The notes below the pieces were generated by a model. That model was not told where the DNA came from, made no database searches, and saw only the letters and a program-made list of their open reading frames with translations. A program made the translations under genes and the position numbers. From NCBI GenBank assembly GCA_047602405.1, contig JASGHJ010000002.1:800001-864000 (forward strand): a stretch of 64,000 nt of DNA, given 5' to 3'. The DNA comes from Anaeromyxobacteraceae bacterium (GTDB taxonomy: Bacteria > Myxococcota > Myxococcia > Myxococcales > Anaeromyxobacteraceae). Positions 14,036 to 17,873 of this stretch are shown piece after piece. Position 1 is the first letter of the stretch, and each line of letters starts with the position of its first letter.

Positions 14036-14119
14036 CCGCTCTGCGGGGCGGGGAGCGTCCGGGGATACGACTCGGCCCAAGCTCCTCTCCAAGGTCGCCG
14101 AGGACGGCGCCGAGGAGGA

Positions 14120-14283
14120 CGCTGGCGACGCGAAGCTCGGCTTCGTCGAGAACAGCGAGGTGTTCTACAACCAGCAGCGGCGTCACTCGGCCATCGGCTA
14201 CGTCAGCCCGGCCGAGTTGGAGAGGGCAGCAAGGTTGAGGTCAGCAGCTTAGCCAACCTGTCCACCGAACAGGATCAAGCCCA
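14120..14283 (+). mobile_element. IS3-family remnant (integrase C-terminus plus right inverted repeat)
   Basis: Frame reads EVFYNQQRRHSAIGYVSPAELE...*, followed by CTGTCCACCGAACAGGATCAAGCCCA ending in CA; left boundary approximate. Confidence 0.8.
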
Positions 14284-14381
14284 GACGCCATCCCGGACAT
14301 GGCGAGCGCGATGACAGGCACTCGGAGAGTCGGTTGCATGCGACACATTACTCGCCGGAGGGCGCATCCCGCCGCTTCCAT
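14284..14381 (-). pseudogene. 5' stub of cassette 3 gene cut off by the IS3 end
   Basis: ATG follows site copy 3; ...MQPTLRVPVIALAMSGMA (signal-peptide-like) runs into the IS3 IR. Confidence 0.45.
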
Positions 14382-14383
14382 CT

Positions 14384-14410
14384 TCCTCCCCCATCTCACG
14401 CCGCGTGCGG
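14384..14410 (-). repeat. 27-bp cassette site, copy 3
   Basis: TCCTCCCCCATCTCACGCCGCGTGCGG, identical to 15377-15403; followed by TGCGCCnnGCGACC at 14423-14436. Confidence 0.9.
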
Positions 14411-14466
14411 TAGCAGGTGAGTTGCGCCCGGCGACCGTTCGCTTCGGGAGGAGGGTGGCGCGTCCC

Positions 14467-15369
14467 TCAGTTGCACCAGTCAACGCCCACCAGGCTCCAC
14501 CCGTCCGCTGTTGCGGCGAGGTCGAAGAAGTACTCCGTCGCCAGCGTCTTCGAGCGGAGCGCGACCGTGTAGCCGCCAAGCTGCACGGCCCTTGCGGTCA
14601 CGTCGGTGGTTGCGTCGGGCGCACTCGCAACGTCTAGGGCGGAGTGGGTGCGGATGTCGTTCCCGCAGGTGCCCAACTCTTCCGCAGAGAAGAAGAAGGC
14701 GTGGAAGTCGCAACCGGAACCGAGCGCCTTGGCCAGAGCTTCTCGCGGCACCTGGTCATCGCTGCACGTCAGGCCTTGAGGGGCTATCAGCGCCAAGATG
14801 CGTGCCGTGTTGCGAGTCCGAATAGCCTCCACGAGGTCACGAGCGACCTCGCGAACATCGAAATGTCGGCCGCTCTCCGCCTTCCCGTCGCCCTCAACAG
14901 GGCGGTTAAGAGTCTTCGCCAACGAAAGTCCCCGCGTGCGCACGTCCGCAATGCACCAGCGGCTTCCCTGGAACGAGAGGTCGAAGTCGATGTTGGTCGT
15001 GGTCTCGGGCGGGCCTTCGTAGCTCGCTCGCACTCGCGCGGTGCGTCCACGCCTCATGGTCTGCTTCAGCTTCAGGGTAGTGAGCCAGTCCTCGTCGAAG
15101 TCGTTGCCACCCATCAGCGGGTCCCAGTCCAGGTTGCAGATGCTCTTGTTTCGGCGGGAGCACTCTCTGTCGGCCACCAGGAGTGCGCGGAGCTTCGGGC
15201 AGTACCGCTCCTCAATACGGGAGCGGTACTCCTGAGCATGGGGGCCACGTAGCTCAAGCGCGTCCTTCTCAAGTGCGTAGACGTCTCGAACCGCGTCCAG
15301 TGGCGTCGTGGCCGGAGAGGCGCCAGTCACCTGAACGACGAGAACGGAGGCCATGACGAGGACGCTCAT
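14467..15369 (-). CDS. Exported DUF3828 (YbjP/YqhG/Tai3-like) domain protein, cassette 2
   Basis: Signal-like N-terminus, CNLDWDPLMGGND...ARVRASY...WCIADV; non-host codon usage. Confidence 0.7.
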   Translation of the reverse strand: MSVLVMASVLVVQVTGASPATTPLDAVRDVYALEKDALELRGPHAQEYRSRIEERYCPKLRALLVADRECSRRNKSICNLDWDPLMGGNDFDEDWLTTLKLKQTMRRGRTARVRASYEGPPETTTNIDFDLSFQGSRWCIADVRTRGLSLAKTLNRPVEGDGKAESGRHFDVREVARDLVEAIRTRNTARILALIAPQGLTCSDDQVPREALAKALGSGCDFHAFFFSAEELGTCGNDIRTHSALDVASAPDATTDVTARAVQLGGYTVALRSKTLATEYFFDLAATADGWSLVGVDWCN

Positions 15370-15376
15370 GCCCGCA

Positions 15377-15403
15377 TCCTCCCCCATCTCACGCCGCGTG
15401 CGG
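15377..15403 (-). repeat. 27-bp cassette site, copy 2
   Basis: TCCTCCCCCATCTCACGCCGCGTGCGG; followed by TGCGCCnnGCGACC at 15415-15428. Confidence 0.9.
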
Positions 15404-15450
15404 GAGGGTACGGGTGCGCCAAGCGACCTCAGAGATGACCGAGGGACGAG

Positions 15451-15896
15451 CTACCCGTTACCCCAGAAATGGAACACGTACACCGAGGAGCCGTCGCTAG
15501 AGACCTGTACGTAGCCTACGGCCTTGCTCGTCTCGCCGGTGCCCGGGGTCTCGCGCGTCCATCCTGAGTCGAACCGCATCACCGTCGATGGCACCGATAG
15601 GAAGTGCGGCTCGGTACCCGGCGAGCCGGCCACCGGCGTGCTCTCGACGCTCTTCATGTCGATGAACCTCCAGCCGTTGCGCTCGGCAAAGGCCCTTGCT
15701 TCGGCTTCGGAGAACGAACGGCCATCGCACGCCGCCCATCGCAGCCCGCGTGTGCCACCCCAAGGCCCCTGGTGCTCGTGTGCTCGCGAAGGCAGTTCGG
15801 GTGGAACTTGGTCCAGAAGCCAGCAGGACCCGGGGAACGGGAGCATCCGACGAGGGCGACCAGCAGGGCCAGCAGGGTCAGGCGGCGAGGGGCCAC
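15451..15896 (-). CDS. Hypothetical lipoprotein, cassette 1 (frameshift near 15775)
   Basis: Lipobox LVGC in ORF 15654..15896 joins QGPWGG...VFHFWGNG of ORF 15451..15846 with one added base. Confidence 0.65.
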
Positions 15897-15903
15897 ATCG
15901 CCA

Positions 15904-15930
15904 TCCTCCCCTATCTCACGCTCCGTGCGG
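15904..15930 (-). repeat. 27-bp cassette site, copy 1 (tmRNA-proximal variant)
   Basis: TCCTCCCCTATCTCACGCTCCGTGCGG, 24/27 identical to copies 2 and 3. Confidence 0.85.
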
Positions 15931-15931
15931 A

Positions 15932-15965
15932 GGAGACCAAGCGGAGGAGACCAAGGGAGACCAAG
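15932..15965. repeat. Three direct repeats GGAGACCAAG (possible recombinase arm-type sites)
   Basis: Exact copies at 15932, 15946 and 15956. Confidence 0.75.
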
Positions 15966-15970
15966 CCCGG

Positions 15971-16002
15971 AAAAGAAGAAGCCCCGTGATTAGCGGGGCT
16001 TC
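15971..16002 (-). terminator. Rho-independent terminator of ssrA
   Basis: Minus strand GAAGCCCCG-CTAATCA-CGGGGCTTC followed by TTCTTTT. Confidence 0.85.
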
Positions 16003-16004
16003 TA

Positions 16005-16353
<349 letters not shown>

Positions 16354-16500
16354 TGAACGGCAACTGCGGCGATGCAGACTCCCGTACACGTAAGGCTTCC
16401 GCCGCCCGAGTCAAGGCGGCGGGCGGAACCTAGCAGGTCTACGGACGTGGCGGAACCCCTGTGGCGGCGCGGGGTTCCTCGCGGGGCGCCCGGCCGGCCG

Positions 16501-17337
16501 TCAGGGGACCGTGACGTTCGCGGCCTGCACCAGGAACGTGCCGTTCGCCTTGATGCGCACCTGGTTCGACTCGAGCGTCGTCGTCGCGGCGACGCTCGTG
16601 GTCGAGTTTCCGCCCACGGAGGTGCTCGCGCTGCCGCCCACGGACGTGCTCGCGCTCCCGCCGATCGACGTGGCCGCGTTCCCCGCGACGGTCGTGGTCG
16701 AGGTGCTGCCGATCGAGGTCGTCGCGGTCCGGCCGACGTGCTCGGTCCGGTCGTTGCCGATGGTCTCGGCGACGCTGCCGCCCACGCTGACCGACGCGTC
16801 CGCGCCGACGGAGGTCACGGCGTTGCCGCCGACGGAGGTCGACGCGTGCGAGGCGACGATGGTGTCCGAGCTGCCCGCGACGGAGGTGGTCGAGTCGTGG
16901 CCGATGGACACGCTCGAGTCGCGACCGACGCCGACGGTGAGGTCCGTGCCGACCGCGAGCGTGAAGGTGCGGTCGACCCGGAGCGAGAGGTCCCGGAGCG
17001 CGGTGAGCGCGACGTCGGCCGGGAACTGCAGCTCCGCGGCGTTCACCTTCACGACGGCGCGGCCGCTCGAGGTGTCGAGCGTCAGCGCGCCGCCGAGGGC
17101 GCTCGTGGTGTTCGCGGCGACGGTGGCGCTCAGGCTCGCGACGGCGGCCTTGAGCGCGGCGACCTCCGCCTGCGTGGCCTGAAGCGCGGCGCGGGTGGCG
17201 GCGAGCTCGGCCTTGAGCTGGGCGAGGCCGCGGTCGCCGTGATGGTCGTCGCGGTCGTCGTGGGACTTGCGGCCGTCGGCGAGCGCGGGGCTCGCGAGGG
17301 TCAGGGCCGCGAGGGCGGCGAGGACGAGGCGGGTCAT
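16501..17337 (-). CDS. Secreted protein with coiled coil and gp5/VgrG-like 8-residue beta-helix repeats
   Basis: Signal peptide ending PALA, heptad segment, then repeats such as TSVGGNAV/ETIGNDRT/EHVGRTAT/TSIGGSAS. Confidence 0.75.
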   Translation of the reverse strand: MTRLVLAALAALTLASPALADGRKSHDDRDDHHGDRGLAQLKAELAATRAALQATQAEVAALKAAVASLSATVAANTTSALGGALTLDTSSGRAVVKVNAAELQFPADVALTALRDLSLRVDRTFTLAVGTDLTVGVGRDSSVSIGHDSTTSVAGSSDTIVASHASTSVGGNAVTSVGADASVSVGGSVAETIGNDRTEHVGRTATTSIGSTSTTTVAGNAATSIGGSASTSVGGSASTSVGGNSTTSVAATTTLESNQVRIKANGTFLVQAANVTVP

Positions 17338-17510
17338 GTGAGGTTCCCCCCGGCGCAGCCCCGGGGGCGAGGGCGCGCGTCCACCCATCGATAACGGGCG
17401 GCCGGGCGGGCGCACCCCTCTCGCCGGACGCCCCGGATCGAGGCCGTGCCGGCGCGATGTCAAGCCGACCCAGCCCACACGTGAGGCTTCGGCCACCCGA
17501 GTCGCGGCGT

Positions 17511-17873
17511 CTACCGGGTCCGAGCCGTGACGACCAGGCACTCCTCGCGCCAGAAGAGGATCCCGGTCTGGTGCAGGTCCACCTGCACGTCCGAGAGCGG
17601 GGCGCCGTTCGCCGCCTCGCTCGCCTTCCGGAGCGCCTCGCGGTAGCCACCCTCGCCCCAGGCGACGCTGAGGGTGGCGGACGGCACGGGGACCGCGAGC
17701 CCGCGGCGGCACGCCTCGCCGCGCACATCGCGCGTGCCGGCGCCGACGTCGCCACGGCACGCGAGCGGGCCGGCGCTGTCCTCGAAGAGGACGCCCACGG
17801 GCTGAGGGAAGGCGAGCCGCGGCAGGCACCCCGCCGCGGGCAGCGCGAGCAGGGCGAGCAGGAGCGGTCTCAC
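17511..17873 (-). CDS. TRL-domain lipoprotein
   Basis: Lipobox AAGC, GEAC...VAWGEGGY...LSDVQVD...CLVVTA. Confidence 0.7.
   Translation of the reverse strand: MRPLLLALLALPAAGCLPRLAFPQPVGVLFEDSAGPLACRGDVGAGTRDVRGEACRRGLAVPVPSATLSVAWGEGGYREALRKASEAANGAPLSDVQVDLHQTGILFWREECLVVTARTR

Follow-up and report, generated by a model that had tools for sequence, protein, structure and literature searches.

The stretch of DNA considered here (the window) comprises 64,000 nucleotides of contig JASGHJ010000002.1 from an Anaeromyxobacteraceae bacterium, whose genome we refer to as G000. It carries a tmRNA gene, ssrA, at 16005-16353 on the minus strand, recognized by ARAGORN and by Rfam, and the last 20 bases of this gene are an integration hotspot in relatives; no Rfam family besides tmRNA was found. 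Reading on from the tmRNA 3' end along the same strand, there is an intrinsic terminator-like hairpin at 15977-16003, which is part of an islet left end and differs between relatives depending on which islet they carry, followed by three direct repeats of CTTGGTCTC at 15932-15965 and then by a short array of genes with a related module in front of each. Module copy 1 (15897-15930) consists of a 27-bp core that ends in a -10-like hexamer (15903-15908), plus a 6-nt spacer. Junction 2 (15370-15432) is made up of a 14-bp element (15414-15427), a spacer, the 27-bp core (15377-15403) and a 6-nt spacer, and junction 3 (14382-14436) of a 14-bp element (14422-14435), a spacer and the 27-bp core (14384-14410), with the last base of the hexamer changed. 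On the other side, upstream of the tmRNA, the gene in the 16439-17755 region contains repeats with a period of 24 nt (8-residue repeats), and the frame tested gave no Pfam match.

An earlier note on this DNA had placed the 27-bp site at 15904-15930, 15377-15403 and 14384-14410 on the gene strand behind the tmRNA, with copies 2 and 3 identical, copy 1 different at three positions and spacings of 527 and 993 bp; we recovered the same coordinates, matches and distances. A motif search of the assembly located the site, with up to five substitutions allowed, at these three places only in the 6.16-Mb genome, and the second element 11-12 bp outside the core at copies 2 and 3 is indeed there. By itself, an exact 27-mer that recurs within 2 kb is nothing singular, as the genome has 31 such places. 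The low GC content noted previously also holds, at 65.8% for the array versus 74% for the genome, with a GC3 of 0.78 in gene 2 versus 0.95 in the adjoining PQQ gene. The array is a set of co-oriented single-gene units, and it is damaged: the previous description, in which each site precedes one exported-protein gene, has to be amended, as gene 1 is frameshifted, gene 2 alone is whole, and site 3 leads into an open frame of about 97 bp, a stub of gene 3 cut by an IS3 remnant.

Gene 1 (15451-15896, minus strand) encodes a lipoprotein of an unnamed conserved family and is frameshifted near 15775-15785; since its N-terminal and C-terminal pieces each align with 17 full-length homologues, its start is fixed at the GTG at 15896. 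The family counts 21 relatives besides gene 1 itself, yielded no Pfam or NCBIfam match for gene 1 and no match in a fold search at E <= 0.001, and occurs among 401 phylum genomes in G000 and the sister Anaeromyxobacter MAG G010 only, with no relative among viral contigs and one partial match among plasmids. A distant, high-GC paralogue of gene 1 is syntenic in both sisters (G000 C1:1178058-1178495, L239:1375-1812; G010 C3, L238:1453-1899). Gene 2 (14467-15369, minus strand) encodes a whole, predicted exported protein of 300 aa with an N-terminal DUF3828 domain, for which the Pfam E-value of 1.2e-5 lies at the cut-off and structural neighbours are also DUF3828 proteins; no other relative of similar length was found. 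The gene 3 stub (14285-14381, minus strand) is without a Pfam match, and its open frame runs into the end of an insertion sequence at 14158-14284 on the plus strand, which we take to be of the IS3 family and which retains the last transposase codons and the right end. This remnant matches rve_3 at E 0.0015, under the cut-off, and a stretch in G304 at 93% over 69 nt and 85% over 34 nt. Fused to it are 79 bp (14079-14157) that are 93.7% identical to C1:1064250-1064328, within a gene whose translation reads like a DNA polymerase III beta clamp (presumably dnaN). DUF1963 and DUF4288 are encoded behind related modules elsewhere, and 13 other cargo-type proteins and homologues had no Pfam match; the cargo may consist of envelope or immunity proteins (DUF3828, DUF1963, lipoproteins).

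The setting of the array is best understood from relatives, where two to five copies of the tmRNA 3' end were present in 10 of the 18 flanking stretches examined. Many of these copies bound small integrase-less islets with a common 140-bp right end; one left-end class carries two or three CTTGGTCTC repeats, and the repeats also sit behind tmRNA-end copies. As a 2-copy CTTGGTCTC variant lies at an island in G052 that encodes a 455-aa tyrosine integrase, the repeats probably serve a tmRNA-targeting tyrosine integrase as arm sites. Stacks of small islets are found at the tmRNA on L035, L037, L038, L039, L046 and L048 (G021, G015, G024, G012, G007 and G009, respectively); their conserved right end of about 140 bp has internal repeats, they mostly lack a homologue of the G052 integrase, and the first islet of G015 is one gene between both ends. 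The integrase frames of L049:2100-3467 (G052) and L048 (G009), both of the tmRNA-targeting tyrosine type, run through the arm repeats and the terminator into the tmRNA on the opposite strand. G000 has a single copy of the tmRNA 3' end, with the left end directly against it, complete with an element-specific terminator and arm-like repeats. It has no islet right end or second tmRNA fragment, its right side being cut by the IS3 remnant, no integrase was found near the array, and no homologue of the G052 integrase was found in the genome at E <= 1e-20 (best identity 27%); viral sequences held no relative of that integrase either. The right end of the locus is gone, and as an islet it is probably no longer mobile.

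Judged by sequence comparison, the site belongs to an Anaeromyxobacteraceae module family that occupies the left end of integrase-less tmRNA islets. The modules of relatives lie behind the repeats and end in GGG(C/G)AGGAT, and patterns together with a profile yielded 18 members, including five array copies; some are stranded far from any att core, with ragged left ends, and one lone module (C2:785531-785590) sits between divergent genes in G000, 30 kb from the array. In 13 of the 18 modules the distance from the hexamer to a start codon (ATG or GTG) is exactly 6 nt, in three it is 9 nt and in two it is neither (background 3.3% and 2.5%), and as four of the modules were found using the start codon, the corresponding counts for the other 14 are ten, three and one. 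The six spacer bases vary freely at constant length, and independent evidence bears out the +6 start for gene 1 and for a complete DUF1963 gene in G020. Two pairs of relatives differ in how much they share: G050 and G020 have the module and its gene in common up to the stop codon (785 bp, 77.7%) and differ in what surrounds them, and G015 and G007 share 71 bp only, after which different genes follow, the new gene entering 12 nt into the frame.

The part of the module nearest to the gene is likely a leaderless promoter, a reading that is based on the spacing of the starts, the spacing of TANNNT hexamers and the profile of the flanking bases. TANNNT signals about 12 bp before the start have been read as leaderless promoters, according to the available text of PMC3160421. 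The hexamers TAGGAT, TAGAAT, TAAGAT and TAGACT in G000 have their main peak 6 nt before the start codon and, except for TAGACT, a second one at 9 nt; more generally, the peaks of TANNNT hexamers 6 and 9 nt before ATG or GTG suggest that leaderless mRNAs are numerous in Anaeromyxobacter. Bases -18 to -13 and -10 to -8 fit the G000 leaderless profile, with 17 of the 18 modules scoring in roughly the highest 2% of background; this score is partly circular, given the kinship of the modules and the use, for several of them, of search patterns that fix the same bases. The earlier proposal that the site merely supplies a Shine-Dalgarno sequence does not account for most relatives, which read GGCAGGAT at the same fixed spacing to the start; GGAGG has no start-codon spacing peak in G000. 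Against a promoter, position -12 is G or C and not T, there is no TTG at -35, a consensus promoter scan found none in the module, of 59 non-coding occurrences of GGCAGGAT outside the module only one has a start codon at +6, and AGGA plus 7 nt is also compatible with a Shine-Dalgarno sequence. Terminator stem-loops were absent from the module (RNA z-scores from -0.60 to +0.47 over seven stretches), and a terminator reading was rejected on these folding scores. We also note about ten near-identical intergenic stretches in G000, at C1:210193, 429779 and 1659275, at C2:657739, 1175878, 2199353, 2830453, 2927612, 3045605 and 3332306, and at others, in which TGGCAGGAT is followed by 7 nt, a start codon and the same gene beginning each time; this family has the look of a mobile gene that exists in multiple copies and carries a leaderless promoter.

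Two further loci carry the site itself. The tmRNA region of G010 is 99% identical to that of G000 and contains one homologous copy behind a matching terminator and repeats, with different genes following; the match to the window stops 2 nt past the hexamer. Comparison of the gene content downstream of ssrA thus shows copy 1 kept and the genes directly behind it changed, in support of the earlier idea of a variable gene array at the tmRNA. The metagenome contig L055 (1,050 bp) is an independent second array, with two core copies between three co-oriented genes that are all unrelated to the array genes of G000; one of its two junctions matches junction 2 at 83.8% identity over 68 nt and at 27/27 positions of the core, so this type of junction exists outside G000. 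The middle gene of L055 is also encoded on a contig of 6,630 bp. Chance does not account for three intergenic copies that each precede the start of a gene, together with two more in a second organism. We saw no cassette-precise gain or loss between strains and no such reordering, the comparison being limited to two arrays that share no gene.

The site is rare in the genomes searched. Exact and near-exact scans covered viral, metagenome and species-genome collections, and G010 and L055 were the two true loci: the species-genome scan returned two loci (G010 plus a match within a long ORF that is due to chance), the metagenome scan the same chance contig and L055, and viral contigs gave none. Such scans likewise found no site in 40 relatives (the G010 copy escaped through a 1-nt deletion) or in 400 phylum genomes, and chance-level matches only in plasmids. 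BLAST of junction 2 against 92 family genomes produced G000, G010 and chance-level matches only; there was no second multi-copy array in these 92 genomes, no long array in them or in 80 others, and no match (0/80) to profile R1 at E <= 1e-4 in 80 genomes outside the family, a search run without a positive control.

The anatomy of the junctions bears on how the units are delimited. The six copies of the core are identical at 22-27 of 27 positions and the 5' halves of the inner junctions at 17-23 of 31-32. Among the four inner junctions, five of the six pairs of 5' elements are more alike than random 30-mers (p <= 0.025), the pair c2-c3 reaching p 0.135. Comparison of this element with copy 1 or with the arm repeats gave no significant similarity (p 0.135-0.999), in agreement with the earlier observation that copy 1 has a different 5' flank; a reading of the junction 5' half as a decayed arm repeat is unsupported, its similarity to the arms not being significant. 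Because the inner junctions share this second, 14-bp element and the tmRNA-proximal copy lacks it, the units have two defined ends. In G010, the last small gene is followed by a core-less stretch that resembles the 5' element (p 0.007 for two of four). The recombinase core proposed previously, CAC-N5-GTG with GTGAGAT, fares less well, as CAC-N5-GTG is retained in only 6 of 17 parsed family members (G007 was left out of this count and of that of the dyads), and AC-N5-GT in 12 of 17. A 3-bp dyad around a 3-nt centre (ACG/CGT or ACT/AGT) is present in 11 of the 17 modules versus 9% of background, which is a weak sign of a dimeric binder, whether regulator or recombinase. By eye, the reverse strand resembles the last codons of an integrase and the right arm of the islets, a likeness that we attribute to chance.

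The site is not an integron site. The ends of attC sites read RYYYAAC ... GTTRRRY, and attC motifs were found at none of six sites on either strand. Single-strand hairpins of the attC type were not found on eight junction strands (z-scores from -1.53 to +1.48; two strands at about -2.5 include the terminator), and single-strand hairpin readings, be it as attC, REP or single-strand promoter, were rejected on these values. An IntI was sought with TIGR02249 in the assembly, which is 98% complete, and none of nine matches passed the cut-off (best 84 bits versus 265). G000 has seven tyrosine-recombinase loci, none of them IntI and none within the window, the nearest being about 104 kb away, and we could link no recombinase to the site.

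How, then, might single genes come to lie behind a common site? We tentatively favour, as a reading only a little less probable than its negation, that promoter-bearing junction modules, which likely lie in the eroded left end of a tmRNA islet lacking an integrase, swap single genes by crossovers in the identical core, likely without a dedicated recombinase. Single genes would be added or swapped by crossovers inside the identical 27-30 bp, and a circle of one gene and one hybrid junction would enter copy 1 by a single core crossover, which would account for the geometry; the enzyme would be host or phage recombination acting on short homology, as in the T4-type PeSL cassettes considered below. 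We favour short-homology exchange because no enzyme and no recombinase-like site anatomy was found and because the conserved part is promoter-like. Against it, 27-30 bp is short for homologous recombination, and no shared cassette was seen in two orders. Alternatively, the core could be the target of a site-specific recombinase encoded elsewhere, with copy 1 as the platform and with inner junctions in which a cassette's 3' end meets the 5' end of the following cassette. The 5' element that is absent from copy 1 and the islet arms, its core-less counterpart in G010, the loop GAG shared by the platform copies of G000 and G010 before they diverge 2 nt past the hexamer, the excess of dyads and the conservation of the core across organisms all speak for such an enzyme; nevertheless, we consider it rather unlikely, given the poor retention of CAC-N5-GTG, the poorly inverted arms around the core, the varying distance from 5' element to core, the remoteness of the nearest recombinase locus, the lack of long arrays and the ragged left ends of stranded modules.

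It is also conceivable, though slightly less probable still, that the module is only a regulated promoter, its dyad and 14-bp element being activator or repressor sites, and that the three genes arrived as one block from a donor element that makes repeated use of this promoter, with no exchange at the site. Activator sites can sit about 48-60 nt upstream of such hexamers, and the 14-bp element lies at about this distance from the hexamer end; all of the promoter evidence fits as well, and single copies occur in ordinary or stranded contexts (C2:785531-785590, G388, G410). Against this, the platform copy that G000 and G010 share is directly followed by different genes in each, five different genes stand behind near-identical cores in two organisms, and in G010 the 14-bp element is also found, without a core, at the end of a gene; moreover, a promoter alone does not explain whole-core identity between organisms (c2 versus L055b, 27/27) where other members of the family vary. 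We deem it highly improbable that the junctions derive from a stack of islets at the tmRNA end, as eroded boundaries that have each shed the att core, the terminator and the right arm. Relatives do often have stacked islets with complete att junctions, and a MAFFT alignment puts the 14-bp element on the second arm repeat, but G000 has no tmRNA-end copy or right-arm sequence outside the gene, the 5' halves are not significantly arm-like, and four junctions in two organisms would need identical deletions. A more far-reaching version of the case for a dedicated enzyme would be a non-integron gene-capture system of the Anaeromyxobacteraceae, in which a cassette site that is promoter and recombinase target in one is plugged into a tmRNA islet left end, served by a recombinase in trans and collecting envelope or immunity genes; we regard this as doubtful.

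The exchange of single genes through short identical modules that we favour has its nearest parallel in phages. The available text of Arbiol et al. 2010 (PMC2839356) describes PeSL cassettes of T4-type phages as repeated intergenic promoter modules before single ORFans in a variable region, where recombination between neighbours gives mini-circles with one hybrid module, and its authors left a dedicated recombinase open. Here, too, repeated intergenic modules with a predicted promoter lie ahead of single genes. PeSLs, however, are described there as having consensus -35 and -10 boxes, a strong terminator hairpin, a Shine-Dalgarno sequence and about 50 copies per phage genome, as compared to the two to three copies in a chromosomal islet found here, with a non-consensus -10, no significant hairpin and a likely leaderless start. 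The ssrA-specific islands of Dehalococcoides, stacked at a hotspot at the tmRNA 3' end and in some cases without integration genes (McMurdie et al. 2011, PMC3146451, as far as its text was available), fit the loci of the relatives well. Their units are bounded by tmRNA-end copies and served by a serine recombinase, according to the same source, whereas the units of G000 have no tmRNA-end copies and the integrase in relatives is of the tyrosine type.

Two further comparisons concern arrays of cassettes. The rAID-1 arrays of Bacteroidales, in the text available to us (10.1101/471110), are co-oriented low-GC genes with repetitive intergenic sequences "reminiscent of integrons"; the array likewise has co-oriented low-GC genes with repeats between them, and its cargo includes DUF3828, a candidate immunity domain. 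DUF3828 is named Tai3-type immunity in the accessible part of PMC12135965 and linked to NlpC/P60 genes in that of PMC3924330. The rAID-1 arrays as described differ in an adjacent XerD-family recombinase and in their size of up to 31 genes, and no XerD-like neighbour is present here. Integrons and CALINs, as the accessible text of PMC8618304 presents them, share the single-gene units, the one orientation and a platform copy unlike the inner junctions; here there is no IntI, attC motif or hairpin, and the units likely carry their own promoter. The consulted portion of PMC13616975 reports no integron cassettes in the myxobacterial genomes sequenced there. Our literature search, with most subscription papers outside its reach, found no description of the 27-bp site.

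Until a long array turns up, the small size of the system, its rarity in the genomes searched and its partial decay in G000 limit the weight of the finding. If a recombinase is involved, the array would represent a cassette system that tools based on attC would miss. If crossovers in the core do move single genes, it would be a chromosomal counterpart of the shuffling of phage PeSLs and a cheap route to expressed new genes, in which the crossover point and the promoter would be the same 30 bases.
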